Shown piece by piece: positions 1 to 6,300 of a stretch of 6,300 nucleotides of DNA. The translations under genes were made by a program, and so were the position numbers. This DNA is from a virus (Duplodnaviria; Heunggongvirae; Uroviricota; Caudoviricetes). Every line of letters begins with the position of its first letter. Position 1 is the first letter of the stretch. The notes below the pieces were generated by a model. It had not been told where the DNA came from and did not search any database. It saw nothing but the letters and a program-made list of their open reading frames with translations. Location: the IMG/VR virus record IMGVR_UViG_648276671_000006, positions 1 through 6,300 of that record. One strand, written 5' to 3'.

Positions 1-203
1 GCTGAAAATGGCAGTAATGATTTATCCTCCGCCAGCGACTGGCGAACGGCAGGAACGAACCCGGACGGCAGATTACGCATGCTTTTCGGTTCCGGCTCCA
101 CCAGTATCCGGGTATTGTGGAATACTGGCATGGATTCACGGCCCAGCTTAAGGACCACCAACCCAAGTTCTGGTACCAGAACAGGTCGAAGTAATACCCG
201 CAC
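1..203 (-). CDS. hypothetical protein, truncated at the left window edge (N-terminus MRVLLRPVLVPELGLVVLKLGRESMPVFHNTRILVEPEPKSMRNLPSGFVPAVRQSLAEDKSLLPFS...)
   Basis: Minus-strand frame is open from GTG at 203..201 to position 1. GGAGG (212..208) lies 4 nt upstream, and the TAA stop of the preceding gene (207..205) sits inside the same GGAGGTAACGTG junction. An alternative in-frame ATG at 275..273 has only a weak GGA upstream. Not in the ORF track because it runs off the window. Product not recognised. Confidence 0.45.
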   Translation of the reverse strand, partial: MRVLLRPVLVPELGLVVLKLGRESMPVFHNTRILVEPEPKSMRNLPSGFVPAVRQSLAEDKSLLPFS

Positions 204-204
204 G

Positions 205-450
205 TTACCTCCAGATCCGTTGCTGGTATGTGCGGGATGGGCGCGGTGGGCGTTCGGAATAAGGGAGCCTGACATAGATTATCCAGTGACGATAATCGAG
301 GCTGAGGGCTTTCTTAATCTCGTATCCGCGTCTGCGGTAGTTCTGAATCAGCCATTCGGCCTGTTCTTCAGTGCAGGGGTTATGCTGGAACCAGTCTGGT
401 TTGAATGCGTGAAAACGCCGCTCATTGTAACTCGTTGCTTTTTGCGTCAT
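205..450 (-). CDS. hypothetical small protein (81 aa, MTQKATSYNERRFHAFKPDWFQHNPCTEEQAEWLIQNYRRRGYEI...)
   Basis: Track ORF 205..462 trimmed to the ATG at 450..448, which has GAGGA (460..456) 5 nt upstream. The N-terminal 50 residues look protein-like. The C-terminal 30 residues (RLPYSERPPRPSRTYQQRIWR) are low-complexity, so the true end is uncertain. Confidence 0.55.
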   Translation of the reverse strand: MTQKATSYNERRFHAFKPDWFQHNPCTEEQAEWLIQNYRRRGYEIKKALSLDYRHWIIYVRLPYSERPPRPSRTYQQRIWR

Positions 451-479
451 AACAATCCTCATGACGCATCATTATCAGA

Positions 480-511
480 CCCCACAGTGTTCAGCTATGG
501 GGTTTTATTAT
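480..511 (+). terminator. terminator-like hairpin with a plus-strand T-run, in the gap between two minus-strand genes
   Basis: CCCCACAG (480..487) pairs with CTATGGGG (495..502) with one mismatch, loop TGTTCAG, followed by TTTTATTAT on the plus strand. On the minus strand the same hairpin has no U-run after it. Confidence 0.3.
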
Positions 512-529
512 CTCCACTAACGGTGTCCG

Positions 530-748
530 CTACAAGCCCCCGGACGAATACTGCTGCACAATATCACGCAATACTGCGTGGGACACAATGCGTTCGTCAT
601 TATGCAGAGGGCGCACCCTTAATACCTTCCCCATTCGTCTCCAGACAGCTCTTTTACTATCAGGCAAACTATCCATCTCAGCAACCACTGCGCCATCAGA
701 GCGGCGAACAACTTCATATTCATGCTCCGTCAATGCGTGACTTCTCAT
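530..748 (-). CDS. hypothetical small protein (72 aa, MRSHALTEHEYEVVRRSDGAVVAEMDSLPDSKRAVWRRMGKVLRVRPLHNDERIVSHAVLRDIVQQYSSGGL)
   Basis: ATG at 748..746 with a strong AGGAGGAA 7 nt upstream. Balanced charged/hydrophobic composition. Lies downstream of the hok terminator, so it is probably a separate transcription unit or needs read-through. Confidence 0.6.
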   Translation of the reverse strand: MRSHALTEHEYEVVRRSDGAVVAEMDSLPDSKRAVWRRMGKVLRVRPLHNDERIVSHAVLRDIVQQYSSGGL

Positions 749-930
749 ATCGTATTTCCTCCTGGATCGTTACCTTCAAAATAAATCTTTCTGATAAGAG
801 AAATATAACCACCTGATGTGATTATTTCATCACCAATAATTGAGTGTTTTTTGCCCGCTCTCAATGAAATTTTTTTACGTCTGTTATCTAATCAGAAAGT
901 AGCGTGTCTTTTAAACAGTCGTTGATTTTG

Positions 931-957
931 GCAATAAAAAACCCGCCGAAGCGGGTT
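931..957 (-). terminator. rho-independent terminator of the hok transcript
   Basis: On the minus strand: AACCCGC-UUCG-GCGGGUU (plus 940..957) followed by UUUUAUUGC. GC-rich 7-bp stem with a UUCG tetraloop and U-run. Confidence 0.7.
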
Positions 958-960
958 AAG

Positions 961-1018
961 TGCGGGTGCGTTGAGGATGCCTGACACATCAGAGGTGGCG
1001 AGGGATTTCTCCCTCGCC
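961..1018 (-). promoter_or_regulatory. hok mRNA 3' elements: fbi-like box (961..976) and a perfect 9-bp hairpin (997..1018)
   Basis: The transcript here reads CCUCAACGCACCCGCA, complementary with one bulged C to the predicted 5' end UGCGGGUGCUUGAGG (1330..1316). GGCGAGGGA/UCCCUCGCC hairpin with a 4-nt loop sits just 3' of the hok stop. Confidence 0.5.
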
Positions 1019-1025
1019 TGGTCTC

Positions 1026-1181
1026 TTACTCCTCAGGTTCGTAAGCTGTGAAGACAGCGACCTCCGTCTGGCCGGTTCGGATTCGTACCTCGCAGAGGTC
1101 TTTCCTCGTTACCAGTGCCGTCACTATGACGGTTAAACAGATGACGATCAGGGCGATTAACATCGCCTTTTGCTGCTTCAT
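1026..1181 (-). CDS. hok: Hok/Gef-family type I toxin (51 aa, MKQQKAMLIALIVICLTVIVTALVTRKDLCEVRIRTGQTEVAVFTAYEPEE)
   Basis: Single hydrophobic transmembrane segment followed by the conserved RKxLCE.R...GxxEVAAF-like tail of Hok/Gef peptides. From memory it is closest to chromosomal HokD/RelF. ATG at 1181..1179 with AAGGAG 9 nt upstream. The 70-aa track ORF 1026..1238 is an in-frame N-terminal extension. Confidence 0.85.
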   Translation of the reverse strand: MKQQKAMLIALIVICLTVIVTALVTRKDLCEVRIRTGQTEVAVFTAYEPEE

Positions 1182-1227
1182 AGCCTGCTTCTCCTTGACC
1201 TTTCGGTCCGTAAGAGGCAATCTATAT

Positions 1228-1290
1228 GTGACGAGCATATAGGGGCCTCACTTCGATTTATAGTCGGGTGGGGCTTTTCTCTATCTGCCT
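1228..1290 (+). ncRNA. expected position of a Sok-like antisense RNA (approximate, not firmly located)
   Basis: By analogy with hok/sok loci, the antisense RNA should cover the leader-ORF SD (plus 1246..1251) and ATG (1236..1238). Plus-strand signals are weak: TTGACC (1195..1200), 17 nt, CAATCT; possible 3' stem 1245..1251/1268..1274 followed by TTTTCTCT. It may be degenerate. Confidence 0.2.
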
Positions 1291-1315
1291 TTGGTGGCAT
1301 GCCCGAGACAGATAG

Positions 1316-1361
1316 CCTCAAGCACCCGCAGCAATTCTACTTAACTCTCCTTTTCCCGCAA
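1316..1361 (-). promoter_or_regulatory. hok promoter and 5' tac-like box
   Basis: On the minus strand: TTGCGG (1361..1356), 16 nt, TAGAAT (1339..1334). Predicted start near 1328, giving a transcript of about 390 nt whose first 15 nt are complementary to 976..961. Confidence 0.45.
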
Positions 1362-1448
1362 ACCGTTTTTATCCCCATCGGCAAATCGAATACACCACCA
1401 GCGCCACCGCCAGTGCGATTCCTACCGTTGTGAATGCTTCAGGGCAGG

Positions 1449-1730
1449 TCATCGCAAAACATCCTCCGCGCTTATCAGTTCGTTCCGCTTCAGGTAGTCC
1501 ATCGCCTTCTCCGGTAATTTGCAGTCTGGATTAGCTTTTTTCAGTTGACTGACCAGTCGTTTAACCCACATTGTTAATTCGCCAACTTGGTTACTGGATG
1601 CTAATGGATTGTCGGCTTTACCCAGAATGACAGCACAGCAGGCCTCTTTGAGAACCCAATCAACAGCATCTTTCCATACTCCTGTTTCGACTGGTGGATT
1701 CTCACGCTTTACCTGTTCATAAAAGCGCAC
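1449..1730 (-). CDS. hypothetical protein (93 aa, VRFYEQVKRENPPVETGVWKDAVDWVLKEACCAVILGKADNPLASSNQVGELTMWVKRLVSQLKKANPDCKLPEKAMDYLKRNELISAEDVLR)
   Basis: Protein-like composition. The only start available is GTG at 1730..1728, with no convincing SD; it overlaps the upstream gene by 22 nt, so translation may be coupled. No in-frame ATG before residue 54. Confidence 0.5.
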   Translation of the reverse strand: MRFYEQVKRENPPVETGVWKDAVDWVLKEACCAVILGKADNPLASSNQVGELTMWVKRLVSQLKKANPDCKLPEKAMDYLKRNELISAEDVLR

Positions 1731-1957
1731 GGCTTTAACCAGTCCTTACGCGCCTGCTCCGAAGGAAATATCCCATGCCCCGAACCATATACTGCACCAC
1801 TGACCACCAGCTCTTTCGCCAGAACTTCTATCAGGTGTCTGGTAGCTCCGGTTTCATCTTCCAGTTGCTTACGCGTTTTCCTTCCGTCTCTGCGTACCAG
1901 TTCCACAATACGCGCCTTCAGTTGTTCCCTGTATTCAGGTGTAAAAGCGTTTCCCAT
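1709..1957 (-). CDS. small winged-helix-like protein (82 aa, MGNAFTPEYREQLKARIVELVRRDGRKTRKQLEDETGATRHLIEVLAKELVVSGAVYGSGHGIFPSEQARKDWLKPCAFMNR)
   Basis: Track ORF 1709..2014 begins at a TTG. The ATG at 1957..1955 has GAGG 5 nt upstream, overlapping the stop of the previous gene. Contains a K.T..EL....G.S...V...L...L...G.V motif also found twice in the 256-aa neighbour. Confidence 0.6.
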   Translation of the reverse strand: MGNAFTPEYREQLKARIVELVRRDGRKTRKQLEDETGATRHLIEVLAKELVVSGAVYGSGHGIFPSEQARKDWLKPCAFMNR

Positions 1958-1964
1958 AAACGCC

Positions 1965-2735
1965 TCACTTTTCCGATACAACGCGACTGGTGGAATCGAC
2001 AATCTGTCGAACAATATCCCGGTGCTTGTTCAGCTCCCGTAGCGCGGCGCAGACACGCTCCCACTTCTGGACATGGCTTTTCGCCCGACGCAGTTCACGA
2101 TTTGCCATATGCAGCGATGGTAAAATCAGGTCATCCGCTCGAGTTTCGGTGAACGATGACAACGACTGCACAATGTCCGCCACAGTTTCTGTTTTAATTT
2201 CTTCCTGTATTGCAGCTTCCTGTACAGGTAACGCAACGCCGGCTGGCTGAGGAAAGGCTTTACCATCATTTTCCGTTACCAATGCGACTTTCGGCTTTAC
2301 TGGTAAATTCTCGCCCGGCATGCAGTAGCGAAATTTACCGTTCTGGTTTACGCGTGCCAGCCGCCCCGTTGCGGTTACTACCGCCAGTGTGGAAGCAACC
2401 TTGCGAGTGCTGACACCGAACTTACCCGCCAGTTCCTCACACGTTTTAGCTCCCTCCTGACCGATAAACTCAATCATCATGTCAGCGGTAACTTTTCGTT
2501 CGACCTCCCTGGTTAACACATCTTGTGTTTCAGATTGTGCTGGCTGCTCTTCGGCTCCCCCTGATTCACCTTCGCCAGCCACACGCCAGGTGTATGCACT
2601 TTTATCAACGAAGCCAGCCTTTTTCAGTTCCCACAGCTCCTTCAGCACTTCTTCACGACTGATATCAAGTCGCGTAGTCAGTTCTACCGACGTGGCTTTT
2701 CCCATTGCTTTCAGTGCGTCAAAAACAGTCTCCAT
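1965..2735 (-). CDS. hypothetical protein with two tandem winged-helix-like motifs and a helical C-terminal region (256 aa)
   Basis: ATG at 2735..2733 with GGGAGGA 5 nt upstream; 33-nt gap after the P-like stop. Motifs [32 protein letters not shown] and [33 protein letters not shown]. No Walker A/B or nuclease motifs seen. Confidence 0.8.
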
Positions 2736-2768
2736 AAATTTCCTCCCGGTAAAAAATCACTTCTCAAC

Positions 2769-3434
2769 TCAAACAAAACCAGCCGCTTTCCGGCGTTCAT
2801 ACTCCTGTTTCAGCAACTCAATTGGCGTTGGTCCCGACGGGCGTTTGGGTGCTGCCAGTTGCCGCCGTACGGGCGGAACGCTGAGGCCGTTGCCAACATG
2901 CTTTGCCCATTTCGTCAGCTGCCGTTCTGCAAGCCGTTTTAACTCCCCTTCGGTCATCTGGCATTCAATCCCCTTTGAACGCATCTCGAGGCAAATGTGA
3001 TACAGCACAGGCTGAGACCACGGGTATTTATCGCTTCCGTCGTATCGCCAGGACTCATTGCGCCAGCGTCGGTACTCCTCCATCACGCCATCTACCGTCA
3101 GACCAAATGGATTTGCCCCGCTCTCCGAAATCAGCGCCACAAACTCAGCCAGGTCCGGAGGCCATGTTTCACCCGCCCGGCAGCGGTCCATGCACTGGCG
3201 GCAGACCTGCCGGATTTGCTGCTCAGTCATCGCGCCAATCTGTGCAATCCAGAGCTTCGAAGGTGCGGACCCGTTCTTCTGGGTCCAGCGGTTCGAATAA
3301 ACCTCCCCCATGAGTTCCCACAGCTTCCACGCCGTTTCCGTCGCTGATAAATCCGTTTTCACGTTCCCACTGTTCACGTGCTGCCCGAATTTCCTGAACT
3401 GCCCGTGATGCGGTGCCACCTGGTGCTGCTGCAT
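2769..3434 (-). CDS. replication protein P-like helicase loader
   Basis: The C-terminal two thirds align by eye with lambda P ([18 protein letters not shown] vs ESYPWKSNAHYWLVTNLY; [13 protein letters not shown] vs TDAELRRKAADEL). Start is uncertain: ATG at 3434 has a G-rich SD but overlaps the O-like gene by 212 nt; internal ATGs at 3311 and 3230 (the latter an ATGACTGA overlap with the O-like stop) are alternatives. Confidence 0.7.
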
Positions 3435-4263
3435 GGCTCCCCCCCTTGCTGACTGGTTTAACCTGCGCCCTGACGTGATTTACGTGACGGGCAAATTTCT
3501 GCTCCCACTGAACCTGCGTGAAAACTTTTCCCTCCTCTGCCCAGTAATCCCGGAAGGCGGCAAGTTCAGCAGGTGTAAATTCCGGCTCCGGCAAAGCCAC
3601 TCCCCACAGTGCAGCCCGCCGTCGAAAATCCGGCGACGGATACCAGTCATCGGTCATCGGAAATTTTCCGATGCGTTCGCTCAGGCCATCCAGGAATGCA
3701 GGGGGCGTTGCCTGTGACGGCAAAACTTCCCTCTCACTGGTCGGAGCACTCTCGCGTGCGTTATGTATGGGGTTTAGATCTTTAGGTTCCTTTGGGTTCC
3801 GTGATCCGTTTTTGGGTGTCTTTGATGGAAAATTTGGGTGCCTTTGGTTATTTTCTATGCTGCAAAGAGTCCCGTTTTTGGGTCTGTTTTGTGCGGAAAC
3901 ACAACCGTTTTTGGTGCTGTTTTTATTAACAGTACCAATTTTACCCACCTTTAAAGACTCCCGTTTTTGGGTGTATTCAGGCTCGGCAACACTTTCTTCA
4001 ACACCGATAAGTTGGTACACCACAATTTGCTTTGTTCGACCTTTTCTCTCACCGGTATCAACAATTAACCCAATCTCCATCAGGTGCCGTAAGCTGTCCT
4101 GCACAGTTTTTTTGTTCAGTTCCGTTACTTCTGCCAGTGCAGATACAGACGGGTATGCACACAAATCGGCACCGCACATATCAGCAAGCCAGGTCAATAC
4201 TGACTTACTGGATGAACTGCCGGTTTTCACCCTTTTAGCCCATCGTAGTGCATCGATACTCAT
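3223..4263 (-). CDS. O-like replication initiator: N-terminal HTH domain, PKNG-repeat linker, DnaT-like C-terminal domain
   Basis: Track ORF 3223..4338 starts at TTG. The ATG at 4263..4261 has GAGG 5 nt upstream ([15 protein letters not shown]...). N-terminal region resembles phage replication-initiator HTH domains; [48 protein letters not shown] resembles the DnaT C-terminal domain. Iteron-like repeats lie inside the linker-coding segment. Confidence 0.8.
3783..3976. repeat. iteron-like direct repeats (CCGTTTTTGGGTG family), putative replication origin inside the initiator gene
   Basis: Near-identical copies at 3806..3818, 3872..3884, 3905..3916 and 3961..3973, plus degenerate TTTGGGT(T/G)CC copies at 3791..3800 and 3833..3842. 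An AT-rich stretch lies at 3917..3958. On the coding strand the repeats translate to recurring PKNG. Confidence 0.55.
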
Positions 4264-4786
4264 GCGAACCTCGACCAGGTATCTGTTGACCCGCAAAGCA
4301 ATGTTGGTATTGCTGACGATATGCACGTTTGAAAGCAATAGCTTTTTCTATAAGCTCGTCAGCCTCACGCTCCACAACAGTTGGATCTGCAAAAAGCAGC
4401 CCGGACTCCACCACATCACCATACTCTTTGTTTAACCCGGCGATCATGTACGTAATGCTTTTTCCGTCAGTAATTTCACAATACAACCTGAAATCACTGA
4501 TCCGGATAGCCTCCATAATTGCCGGAATCAGCGCCGTGAATTTTTCACGCTTATCCCTGGTGTCGATAGCTTTCCAGCGTTCAAATATCTTCACCCTGTT
4601 AACGCCAAGCGCCCGCTGATCAACCACGCCATCATCAAATGTGACACGTTGAACATCGATGTTCGGGCGCTCTTTCAGAGCCCAGAAGGCTTCTGTGATT
4701 AATATCGTCGCCTGCTCCTGCGTCATTCCCGGGCTGCATACCCAGGAGTCCAGAGCCTCACGAGCCTGCTCAGGAGTGAATATCAT
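4235..4786 (-). CDS. YdaT-like protein, positional equivalent of lambda CII (183 aa)
   Basis: Sits between the Cro-like gene and the initiator, as cII does in lambda. ATG at 4786..4784 overlaps the Cro-like stop by 17 nt. Assignment to the YdaT family is from memory of prophage YdaS/YdaT pairs, not from a search. Confidence 0.7.
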
Positions 4787-5063
4787 TGTTCACCGCCAGT
4801 GATTCATTTGTCATACACTTATTCCCACAAGGCAGCCCATCGGTTAGATTGGGGTAAATATCTGGGCGAAGCTCGTGGGGGGTGACTTGCCATTCAAGGA
4901 GCACACAAAGAGGAATGACCCGCTCAGCTGGTATTGATTTATTGGCAAACCATTTTCCAACCCCTTGCCCACTAATCCCAAAGCGTTCTCCAATCTCGAC
5001 AAAGGAAAAGTTTTTTTTAATCTTGTCTCGTAGATCGTTTAGTTTTTGATGTTTTTTAGCCAC
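4770..5063 (-). CDS. Cro/YdaS-like HTH regulator (97 aa from the GTG start)
   Basis: HTH FVEIGERFGISGQGVGKWFANKSIPAERV and an ELRPD motif as in YdaS-type Cro proteins. Track ORF 4770..5162 would leave only 11 nt to the divergent repressor. GTG at 5063..5061 has a near-consensus SD GAGGTGAGG (5078..5070). ATG at 5087 is an alternative, possibly leaderless. Confidence 0.7.
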   Translation of the reverse strand: MAKKHQKLNDLRDKIKKNFSFVEIGERFGISGQGVGKWFANKSIPAERVIPLCVLLEWQVTPHELRPDIYPNLTDGLPCGNKCMTNESLAVNNDIHS

Positions 5064-5173
5064 ACAACACCTCACCTCTTGGTTCATCACTGGGAGCATA
5101 ACAGGCGAAAGTTTACGTTTCAAGAACAAGGAAACAAATAGTTGTACTGATAATCGAAACATTTGGTTGTAAA
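5064..5173. promoter_or_regulatory. divergent promoter/operator region of the immunity switch
   Basis: Three operator-like sites about 25 bp apart: GAAAGTTTACGTTTC (5107..5121, palindromic GAAA-N7-TTTC), GAAACAAATAGTTGTAC (5131..5147) and GAAACATTTGGTTGTAA (5156..5172). Leftward promoter TTGAAA (5123..5118), 17 nt, TATGCT (5100..5095). Rightward promoter CTGATA (5147..5152), 17 nt, TAAAAT (5170..5175). Confidence 0.55.
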
Positions 5174-5599
5174 ATGCAGGCTATGAACGATACCGTTAAC
5201 AATGTTTTTGCAAAAAGAATCCAGCAAGTGATGGATGAAAATGGCTGGAATAAGTCAGACCTGGCTAAGCGGGTCATGTTATCTCACACCGCGGTTCAGA
5301 ATTGGGCAAAAGGCATCAGCGTAGCCAGCGGTGTAAGATTAAAAAGGCTCGCAGCTGTAACAGGAAAGCCTGAGTACTGGTTTTTTATGGATCGGGATGC
5401 AGGAGGCGATGAAAATCACCAAGATATACCAATACCCATTGTGCTTGATGACAAAGAGAAAGCCCTGCTCTCAATTTTCAATCAAATGCCAGAAGCAGAA
5501 AAGTTACGCCTAATTATCCATGCTAAGGAAGTCCTGAGAGAGCTGGAACTGCTTAAGAGCGATGTTTTCGATATTATCAACGATCAATTAAAACCATAG
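5174..5599 (+). CDS. DicA-like HTH (XRE-family) prophage repressor, 141 aa
   Basis: N-terminal HTH SDLAKRVMLSHTAVQNWAKG; the C-terminal segment LDDKEKALLSIFNQMPEAEKLRLIIHAKEV resembles the DicA C-terminal region. No peptidase S24 (LexA-like) domain. Divergent from the Cro-like gene. The start may instead be the ATG at 5183, because the -10 TAAAAT overlaps the first ATG. Confidence 0.85.
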   Translation: MQAMNDTVNNVFAKRIQQVMDENGWNKSDLAKRVMLSHTAVQNWAKGISVASGVRLKRLAAVTGKPEYWFFMDRDAGGDENHQDIPIPIVLDDKEKALLSIFNQMPEAEKLRLIIHAKEVLRELELLKSDVFDIINDQLKP

Positions 5600-5624
5600 C
5601 TAACAAACCATCCACACATCAGAC

Positions 5625-5652
5625 AAAAAGCACCTTTCTGGTGCTTTTTTTT
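5625..5652 (+). terminator. rho-independent terminator after the repressor gene
   Basis: AAAAAGCACC-TTTCT-GGTGCTTTTT: perfect 10-bp stem, 5-nt loop, then a T-run to 5652. The A-run before the stem makes it potentially bidirectional. Confidence 0.7.
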
Positions 5653-5661
5653 GCCCAGAAA

Positions 5662-5712
5662 CGAAATTTTCTATTTCGCACACTTTACACGCGAAAGTTA
5701 TTGTTGCACAAT
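5662..5712 (+). promoter_or_regulatory. second operator-bearing promoter (PL-like) for the rightward ydfA-like operon
   Basis: GAAATTTTCTATTTC (5663..5677) is a second GAAA-N7-TTTC palindrome. GAAAGTTATTGTTGCAC (5693..5709) matches 12 of 17 positions of the 5131..5147 site. Candidate promoter TTTACA (5684..5689), 17 nt, CACAAT (5707..5712). Confidence 0.35.
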
Positions 5713-5790
5713 CCACACCATCAACAACGAAACGCATCGTTGTCAGGCTAAAGTTCCGCTACCCCGGCGTTAAGGGGAAATGAGGTCAAC

Positions 5791-5943
5791 ATGGATACTA
5801 TCGATCTTGGCAACAACGAATCTCTGGTGTACGGCGTGTTTCCCAACCAGGACGGCACGTTCACCGCGATGACGTATACCAAAAGCAAAACATTTAAAAC
5901 CGAAGCTGGCGCGCGTCGCTGGTTAGCCAGAAACACTGACTGA
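5791..5943 (+). CDS. YdfA-like small protein (50 aa, MDTIDLGNNESLVYGVFPNQDGTFTAMTYTKSKTFKTEAGARRWLARNTD)
   Basis: Below the ORF-track length cutoff. ATG at 5791 with GAGG 5 nt upstream; stop TGA at 5941..5943. Its position immediately downstream of a DicA-like repressor matches the dicA-ydfA arrangement of the Qin prophage. Sequence identity to YdfA is from uncertain memory. Confidence 0.6.
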   Translation: MDTIDLGNNESLVYGVFPNQDGTFTAMTYTKSKTFKTEAGARRWLARNTD

Positions 5944-5954
5944 TGAGGTTGACG

Positions 5955-6300
5955 ATGGAATTTAAAGATTTACCAAAAGAAATCCAGTCCATTGCTGCAA
6001 CGACACTTAGTGATAGCCTGGTGGAAATTAACCCGGCATACATCAAAAAGGAAACCATCGATAATTTGGTTCGTAATGTGCGCGATGCGTTTACCGGATT
6101 GTACTCCGTTTCGGTAACAAACAACCAGAATACTGAAGAAGCTGCAAAGCGGAATGCCTCGGTGACGGGTTTTCATGTCGAGGAAAAGTATTCAAAAAAG
6201 AATTCTGGAAAACTGCAAAAAAATTGCAGAGCGAGAACTGTCATCTCCTGCGGCAAATCGGTTCTTTCTATGAGGAAAGTTATTCAGATGACACAGGATT
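5955..6300 (+). CDS. hypothetical protein, truncated at the right window edge (MEFKDLPKEIQSIAATTLSDSLVEINPAYIKKETIDNLVRNVRDAFTGLYSVSVTNNQNTEEAAKRNASVTGFHVEEKYSKK...)
   Basis: ATG at 5955 with GAGG 6 nt upstream, 11 nt after the ydfA-like stop. The frame stays open to position 6300. The first 80 residues look protein-like; the last 35 are lysine/serine-rich and contain a perfect hairpin, so the real gene may end earlier in other strains. Confidence 0.4.
   Translation, partial: MEFKDLPKEIQSIAATTLSDSLVEINPAYIKKETIDNLVRNVRDAFTGLYSVSVTNNQNTEEAAKRNASVTGFHVEEKYSKKNSGKLQKNCRARTVISCGKSVLSMRKVIQMTQD

Follow-up and report, generated by a model that had tools for sequence, protein, structure and literature searches.

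Introduction

In bacteriophage lambda, the initiator gene O is directly followed by gene P, which encodes a loader of the DnaB helicase (PF06992; PDB 9oa1, 8v9t, 8v9s). The N-terminus of the O protein binds ori and its C-terminus binds P, and fragments from the P N-terminus interfere with the function of O (PMC6022878). Lambda P itself is divided, according to cryo-EM, into domain I (residues 1-29, disordered in solution and termed the 'N-terminal lasso'), the compact domain II (~30-119), domain III (~120-192), and domain IV (193-233; PMC12661323). Here, we describe a gene pair of this kind in a 6,300-nt stretch of a Caudoviricetes virus (positions 1 to 6,300 of the IMG/VR record IMGVR_UViG_648276671_000006, in the following referred to as the window), in which an O-like initiator gene on the minus strand is likewise directly followed by a gene for a predicted P-type DnaB loader. 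While the lambda genes overlap by only 4 nt (ATGA), those of the window share 212 nt (3223-3434), and the P-like gene has its own Shine-Dalgarno (SD) sequence and ATG inside the O-like gene. We consider it very probable that this overlap is a genuine same-strand dual-coding region in the replication module of a lambdoid (Rac/PPompW-like) prophage. That P starts at or upstream of an internal ATG at its codon 42, which corresponds to an overlap of at least 89 nt, appears nearly certain, and the ATG at 3434 is likely to serve as its main start in vivo, which would give the full 212 nt.

Long same-strand overprinted genes, in which an ordered segment encoded in one frame lies over a disordered segment encoded in the other, are known from phages and other viruses, and long gene overlaps are often dismissed as mispredictions. 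The present locus shares with overprinted viral genes two conserved frames, synonymous rates that are reduced in both of them, and a complementary distribution of order and disorder. It differs in that here the termini of two adjacent, functionally coupled genes overlap, with no nesting and with neither gene having arisen de novo. The locus thus represents a solid case of a known type of phage overlap (long, same-strand, with complementary disorder) and no new mechanism.

The similarity to lambda comprises a near end-to-end match of P to PF06992 and phrog_109, the fold, a disordered N-terminus, and an equivalent of domain II (the structural features here according to an AlphaFold2 (AF2) model), as well as candidate iterons inside the initiator gene, as at ori-lambda. 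P itself is only ~19-25 % identical to its lambda counterpart, and the C-terminal half of the O-like protein differs in consisting of a DnaT-type domain and a tail instead of the lambda O C-terminal domain. With respect to this latter feature, the locus resembles the DopC/DopE pair (Brezellec et al. 2017, PMC5509034), in which a protein with HTH_36 and a DnaT C-terminal domain is encoded immediately before a PF06992 protein. DopCE, however, is a domesticated chromosomal pair without iterons, and its description makes no mention of a gene overlap (PMC5509034).

Two frames in register across related loci

The O-like open reading frame (ORF) is open over 3223..4338 (minus strand), with its first ATG at 4263 and the TGA stop at 3225-3223. 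The resulting gene (3223..4263, 346 aa) was delineated from the ORF together with Pfam, NCBIfam, and PHROG matches, and the same 1041-nt coding sequence (CDS) is annotated in E. coli by PGAP. The P-like gene extends from the ATG at 3434-3432 to a stop codon ending at 2769 (2769..3434, minus strand; 221 aa). Inspection of the minus-strand ORFs confirmed the starting point of the original prediction, namely that both frames are open across 3223-3434, and likewise the positions of the G-rich SD (AAGGGGGGGAG, 3447-3437) and of the junction ATGACTGA (3230-3223) named therein. The 212 nt common to both ORFs (3223..3434) encode O residues 277-346 plus the stop codon and P residues 1-70. The P frame is +1 relative to O, such that O codon position 3 coincides with P codon position 2.

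An open second frame as such proved uninformative. When the O amino-acid sequence was held fixed and its codons were resampled synonymously, the +1 frame was open over the entire overlap in 50 % of the trials for this sequence and in 7-66 % for other lineages. The lack of stop codons was hence dropped as decisive evidence, and since a second frame would be open by chance about half the time, the case must rest on the comparison of homologues.

For this purpose, ~240 loci were gathered from viral contigs, E. coli genomes, and one E. albertii contig. Their diversity stems from viral contig scans seeded with the proteins P0062 and P0057; a scan of genome contigs returned the E. albertii locus only, and a viral scan with P0112 gave no matches. 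In all 145 distinct loci (P core 53-100 % identical), O lies in the -1 frame relative to P, the O stop follows 89-143 nt past the codon for Met42 of P, and an ATG is found 37-42 codons before Met42, which results in overlaps of 209-254 nt. The same arrangement was present in 15 more loci, including those of the Pectobacterium/Brenneria type, with overlaps of 137-227 nt. Every indel between lineages is a multiple of 3. The comparison of homologous O/P pairs that had been proposed as a check of the overlap thus returned the same two-frame relation, with 137-254 nt shared, in every related locus examined. Judging from these alignments, in which both frames stay in register across diverged homologues, the locus qualifies as a same-strand dual-coding pair. 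The position of the O stop drifts by lineage from +35 nt (L178) to +143 nt (L102) past the Met42 codon, with +89 nt in the window, which would fit a weakly constrained C-terminal end of O.

Start signals of the P-like gene

Conservation of the start site was assessed in 143 loci aligned in codon register. The column of the first P codon (Met1) is ATG in 142 of them, and the remaining locus has an alignment gap beside a 3-nt deletion. An SD core of at least 4 nt is found at -18 to -4 of this ATG in all 143 loci, in 53 of them as GGAGGT with a spacer of 6-7 nt. These figures support the predicted initiation of P at the SD-ATG of 3434. Furthermore, 60 of the 143 loci have a stop in the P frame two codons ahead of the Met1 ATG, so that the P ORF cannot begin earlier there, and apart from Met1 and Met42 no start codon in the interval between them is common to the lineages of the alignment. 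The O residue that spans the P ATG is His, Asn, or Tyr (each encoded by NAT) and the residue after it Ala or Val, with no change in the ATG itself, a pattern that fits selection on a start codon in the +1 frame and not on the O residues.

In the window, the SD (3437..3447, minus strand) lies within the O codons for K-G-G-S and ends 2 nt from the ATG. Its core is a run of seven G (3439-3445), in place of which GGGGGT(A/G)A is found in most E. coli relatives. In several relatives, TAA or TGA lies two codons ahead of the ATG in the reading frame of P; as the window has no stop there, its P frame remains open for 15 further codons upstream. The local RNA at the P start folds no better than shuffled sequences (z = +1.49), which is consistent with an accessible start site but constitutes weak evidence. 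A consensus scan gave no internal promoter.

The two downstream ATGs lack comparable signals. Met42 (3309..3311, minus strand) is encoded by ATG in 143 of 143 loci and may be either a possible secondary start or merely a structural Met; the best SD match before it is usually 3 nt. Before Met69, whose ATG (3230) overlaps the O stop in ATGACTGA (3223..3230, minus strand), 73 of the 143 loci have no SD core. The matches at both sites are at chance level.

A further scenario to be considered is the synthesis of an O-P fusion by a programmed +1 frameshift inside the overlap. Some database ORFs indeed read through the DnaT domain and on into P without a change of frame: in P0117 (44 members) and P0104 (10 members), the domain is fused to P at approximately residue 36, and phrog_15931 mixes O tail and P. 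P0104, however, has a frameshift at the P C-terminus as well and continues into the downstream gene, suggestive of a decayed prophage; a conserved slippery motif was not seen, and the G7 run of the window is G5 in most relatives; and the conserved SD-ATG favours independent initiation. A fusion is therefore hardly credible, and P0117, P0104, and phrog_15931, being probably pseudogenes or artefacts of clustering, were not accepted as support for it. In P0077, a deletion has joined a DUF1376-type O to P; together with P0117 and P0104, this protein probably derives from decaying prophages, and these fusions may explain the mixture of O tail and P in phrog_15931.

Protein families and predicted structures

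The O-like protein consists of a weak HTH_36 match (21.2 bits, under the cutoff of 25), a linker, a DnaT C-terminal-type domain (Pfam PF17948, residues 201-267, 65.8 bits with a cutoff of 25), and a tail. The original prediction had the protein continue for about 70 residues past the DnaT-like domain; the tail is there but measures 79 residues. The NCBIfam DnaT model matches with E = 2.4e-25, below its equivalog cutoff as expected for a domain-only match, and the N-terminal half gives strong matches to PHROG replication-initiator families (phrog_1032, E = 3.8e-88). We thus assign O as a DnaT-domain initiator or replisome organizer with predicted initiator function. The DnaT-type domain, which binds single-stranded DNA in its family, is encoded at 3463..3663 (minus strand; Pfam PF17948 and AF2), just upstream of the overlap.

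P matches Phage_lambda_P (Pfam PF06992) with 59.2 bits (cutoff 26) over residues 53-188 and phrog_109 ('P-like helicase loader') with E = 5.8e-62, its residues 19-220 aligning to profile positions 22-235 of 236. By these profile matches over threshold, P belongs to the lambda P family of helicase loaders and is predicted to load DnaB. BLASTP against lambda P aligns residues 86-193 only; pairwise similarity alone is therefore no proof of homology upstream of 3230, for which profiles and structure are needed. The two profiles, beginning at residues 19 and 53 and thus both before Met69, corroborate the by-eye impression that the similarity to lambda P extends upstream of the ATG at 3230. Among homologues (45-78 % identical), residues 29-68 (AWxLWExMGEIYSNRWTxKNGxxPSxLWIAQIG) rank among the best-conserved stretches of the protein, with W50, K53, N54, G55, P58, and W62 invariant in the alignments and Met42 nearly so. 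Residues 1-28 are poorly conserved, and Met69 is replaced by Leu in about half of the diverged homologues.

An AF2 model of P (221 aa, alignment of 54 sequences, mean predicted local distance difference test (pLDDT) of 77) predicts residues 1-27 as disordered (pLDDT <50), followed by helices 25-46, 48-54, and 60-67 (pLDDT 80-89) and then 71-86 onward. In a Foldseek search against the PDB, the only significant matches were the lambda P chains 9oa1_Z, 9oa1_V, and 9oa1_Y (200-221 columns, probability 1.0, template modelling (TM) score 0.45-0.55), of which 9oa1_Z is the one full-length lambda P chain. According to the model, P would hence share a lambda-P-like fold and domain order, including the disordered N-terminal segment, two compact helical domains, and the C-terminal lasso. 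A start at Met69 would drop three predicted helices of the domain-II equivalent, and one at Met42 would fall inside the first helix.

A search with the C-terminal half of O returned mostly partial E. coli entries, which were used to identify alternative short tails and for the AF2 alignment. In the model of the last 164 O residues (shallow alignment of 20 sequences), the DnaT domain is predicted confidently (pLDDT ~90), the linker O 271-284 is disordered, a single helix spans O 285-302 (pLDDT ~60-70; 3358-3411, minus strand; model residues 103-120), and O 303-346 has pLDDT <50. The predicted order is thus complementary, with the O helix lying over the disordered P residues 1-27 and the P helices over the disordered O residues 303-346, which would explain why the overlap is tolerated.

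These data speak to the alternative that the original prediction had put forward, in which P is a protein of 153 aa translated from the ATG at 3230 by termination-reinitiation at ATGACTGA and the upstream P frame is non-coding. Such an ATGA-type junction resembles the 4-nt overlap of lambda O and P, and PGAP calls the corresponding 462-nt CDS in E. coli genomes. However, in those diverged homologues with Leu in place of Met69 the O stop is displaced (+113 or +143), and a conserved coupled junction was not found among the related loci: ATGACTGA is present here, but both Met69 and the O stop (+35 to +143 nt from Met42) vary. The lack of an SD core in about half of the aligned loci, the earlier onset of both profile matches, the loss of three helices of a compact domain from the product, and the P-type constraint on residues 29-68 (see below) likewise argue against reinitiation, which we regard as highly improbable.

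Substitution rates in the two frames

From the alignment of the 143 loci, 84 representatives yielded 1302 pairs at ≥70 % identity, for which differences and possible sites were classed, following the approach of OLGenie, by their effect in each of the two frames (NN, nonsynonymous in both; NS, nonsynonymous in O and synonymous in P; SN, the reverse), with the O-only and P-only flanks as internal controls for a non-coding second frame. Both controls behaved as expected: O-only sequence gave a P-frame NN/NS of 0.91 (0.72-1.11) and an O-frame NN/SN of 0.36, and P-only sequence a P-frame NN/NS of 0.11 and an O-frame NN/SN of 1.26 (0.93-1.70). A seemingly decisive NN/NS of 0.17 for P codons 22-35 was nevertheless discarded, as 12-codon windows of the O-only control fall to 0.18-0.24. 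Such dips occur because the constraint on O is uneven; NN/NS is therefore unreliable in small windows, and absolute synonymous rates were used instead.

The rate of O-synonymous/P-nonsynonymous changes is 0.470 (0.437-0.504) in O-only sequence, is already 0.22 in the five codons before Met1, and falls from 0.212 (0.160-0.270) in P codons 2-28 to 0.044 over codons 29-41 and 0.031 over codons 42-68. The latter two values match the P nonsynonymous baseline of 0.037 in P-only sequence. Conversely, P-synonymous/O-nonsynonymous changes occur at 0.413 (0.373-0.457) in P-only sequence, 0.257 (0.191-0.326) in codons 42-68, 0.302 in codons 29-41, and 0.058 in codons 2-28, where the O nonsynonymous rates are very low altogether (NS 0.058, NN 0.046). 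The reduced substitution at synonymous sites anticipated for a real overlap was thus observed in both frames relative to the single-gene flanks, with non-overlapping bootstrap intervals between overlap and single-gene parts.

Both frames leave a footprint across the entire overlap, but unevenly. In the first ~85 nt (3351..3431, minus strand; P codons 2-28 over O residues 278-305), strong constraint on O dominates and a moderate extra constraint is attributable to P (~0.45 of neutral). In the last ~125 nt (3231..3350, minus strand; P codons 29-68 over O residues 305-344), constraint on P dominates and a weak one is attributable to O (~0.6 of neutral). The delineation of both parts by substitution rates agrees with the AF2 models, and the onset of strong constraint in the P frame at approximately codon 29 coincides with the boundary between domains I and II of lambda P.

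Several observations weigh against dual coding over the full 212 nt. Given the O protein sequence, the open second frame is not improbable (p ~0.5 for the window). P codons 2-21 show no P-specific amino-acid constraint (NN/NS 1.47, 0.92-3.6), and their sole signal, the halved O-synonymous rate, could partly reflect constraint at the RNA level or regional rate variation. All intervals are codon bootstraps only, and the sequence pairs are phylogenetically non-independent. In the window, the best GGAG of the SD is only 2 nt from the ATG, even though the G run reaches further upstream. Finally, among 67 close E. coli-type relatives (MAFFT alignment), the zone of low diversity (ref 750-1110) extends beyond the overlap (ref 830-1041) on both sides, starting ~80 nt before and ending ~70 nt past it, so that dual coding is not its full explanation. 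The diversity by codon phase in these relatives is accordingly only suggestive of dual coding.

The same region is where a start at Met42 has to be weighed, which would yield a P of 180 aa and an overlap of 89 nt and leave the upstream 123 nt open by chance or as a region for ribosome loading only. The universal ATG could serve as such a start, PGAP annotates 180-181-aa forms in many genera, the absence of P-specific amino-acid constraint in P codons 2-21 would fit this scenario, and the probability that the frame upstream of Met42 is open by chance amounts to 0.13-0.86, depending on the lineage. Residues 29-41 (AWxLWE), however, are conserved and evolve at P-type rates (O-synonymous 0.044), Met42 lies within the predicted helix 25-46 with an upstream SD match of ~3 nt only, the O-synonymous rate is halved from Met1 on, and every locus retains the Met1 ATG with its strong SD despite variation in the overlying O residue. 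Moreover, lambda P possesses the equivalent N-terminal domain I. A sole start at Met42 is thus rather unlikely.

Another conceivable scenario involves several starts, with full-length P from 3434 accompanied by truncated isoforms from 3311 and/or 3230, for example, a lasso-less modulator of loader activity. The invariance of Met42 would be in line with such isoforms, the overlap of the 3230 ATG with the O stop would permit reinitiation in the E. coli-type lineage, and N-terminal parts of lambda P have distinct O-related phenotypes (PMC6022878). On the other hand, neither Met42 nor Met69 has conserved initiation signals, and Met42 is possibly conserved for structural reasons, which makes additional isoforms doubtful. 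Taken together, the profile matches, the conservation of residues 29-68, the retention of ATG and SD, and the rate reductions in both frames back the original prediction that the overlap is real and that P starts at 3434; its alternative of a 153-aa P suffers from the frequent Leu at Met69, the SD missing in 73 of 143 loci, and the loss of three predicted helices.

Module context and candidate origin

The two genes are part of a minus-strand lambdoid early-right operon with Cro/DicC-like, YdaT-like (4235-4786), O-like, P-like, and DUF1627 (1965-2735) genes. Shorter overlaps are found further upstream: the YdaT-like ORF overlaps the O start by 29 nt (4235-4263, minus strand) and is itself overlapped by the Cro/DicC-like ORF by 17 nt (4770-4786, minus strand), and both pairs also overlap in related records.

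A mosaic junction is located at ~3780 (O ref 480-485), upstream of the DnaT domain, and many relatives are homologous only beyond it. The N-terminal halves of their O proteins differ, being of the HTH_36 or the DUF1376 type (DUF1376, e. g., in L004). As shared homology begins upstream of the DnaT domain, this domain, the tail, and P apparently move as one mosaic unit, which resembles the pairing of the O C-terminus with P in lambda. In other O-like proteins (P0161, P0168), which have no P partner tail, this DnaT domain is followed by a short, unrelated tail; the long O tail is therefore specific to P-linked initiators.

Within the O-like gene, four copies of CCCAAAAACGG (one with a mismatch; minus strand, 3806-3816, 3872-3882, 3905-3915, and 3961-3971) were detected, with 0.24 expected by chance. 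They lie in the low-complexity linker between the HTH and DnaT domains and translate to repeated PKNG motifs. By analogy to ori-lambda, these copies look like iterons and may mark a candidate replication origin inside the initiator gene.

Discussion

In the model that we favour, ribosomes on the O-like gene would read through to the TGA at 3223, while other ribosomes would start independently at the internal SD-ATG (3447-3432), 212 nt before the O stop, and synthesize a lambda-P-type loader of 221 aa. Over the first ~85 nt, the conserved O helix 285-302 would impose the main constraint, with the P frame encoding a disordered N-terminus as the counterpart of lambda P domain I. Over the last ~125 nt, the first three helices of the domain-II equivalent of P would do so, and the O frame would contribute a weakly constrained, predicted-disordered tail. 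By analogy to lambda, both the O helix and the P N-terminus may be functional, possibly as elements of O-P or P-DnaB contacts, and we infer that the arrangement keeps the C-terminal half of O and P together as one recombination module.

Current annotations of this locus differ in the start of P. DDBJ records of Stx/PPompW phages place it at the equivalent of 3191 (140 aa, 'phage replication protein'), and the RefSeq PGAP records of E. coli examined place it at the ATGACTGA junction (153 aa, 462-nt CDS, 'replication protein P'). In Citrobacter, Klebsiella, Salmonella, Brenneria, and other genera, PGAP uses the Met42-equivalent start (180-181 aa). Forms of 215-223 aa are found in older GenBank entries (e. 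g., P0001 and P0003, 221 aa, 'replication protein') and among many gene calls from metagenomes. The locus and the stop codon of the PGAP and DDBJ annotations are the same as here, and their starts at 3230 and 3191 avoid the overlap; the evidence presented above favours the long form over these starts. The matter is of some reach, as matches to the module occur in 2035 of 5426 complete E. coli genomes, in at least 907 of them over most of the query. In many E. coli genomes, the PGAP start drops the first 68 residues of P, and the 153- and 140-aa forms lose the N-terminal segment as well as three helices of the domain whose lambda P counterpart forms the crown on DnaB. The 221-aa form is consequently the one to use when these prophage loaders are modelled structurally, built into family profiles, or studied functionally. 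The locus also provides a clean, well-controlled example that a same-strand prophage overlap of more than 200 nt can be real.

More speculatively, and with little confidence on our part, the overlap might be more than compaction, in that the O helix 285-302 and the lasso and first domain-II helices of P would be hard-wired in the same DNA and inseparable by recombination, the internal SD-ATG would set the O:P ratio, and Met42 might give rise to a lasso-less regulatory isoform. If true, the shuffling of lambdoid modules could not separate the loader-binding end of the initiator from the initiator- or DnaB-binding end of its loader, and an internal SD-ATG under elongating O ribosomes would also adjust the ratio of the two proteins. 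The main practical consequence is the correction of a widespread N-terminal truncation of P in annotation, while the conserved O helix 285-302, which may be a loader-contact element peculiar to P-linked initiators of the DnaT type, represents a modest biological lead.

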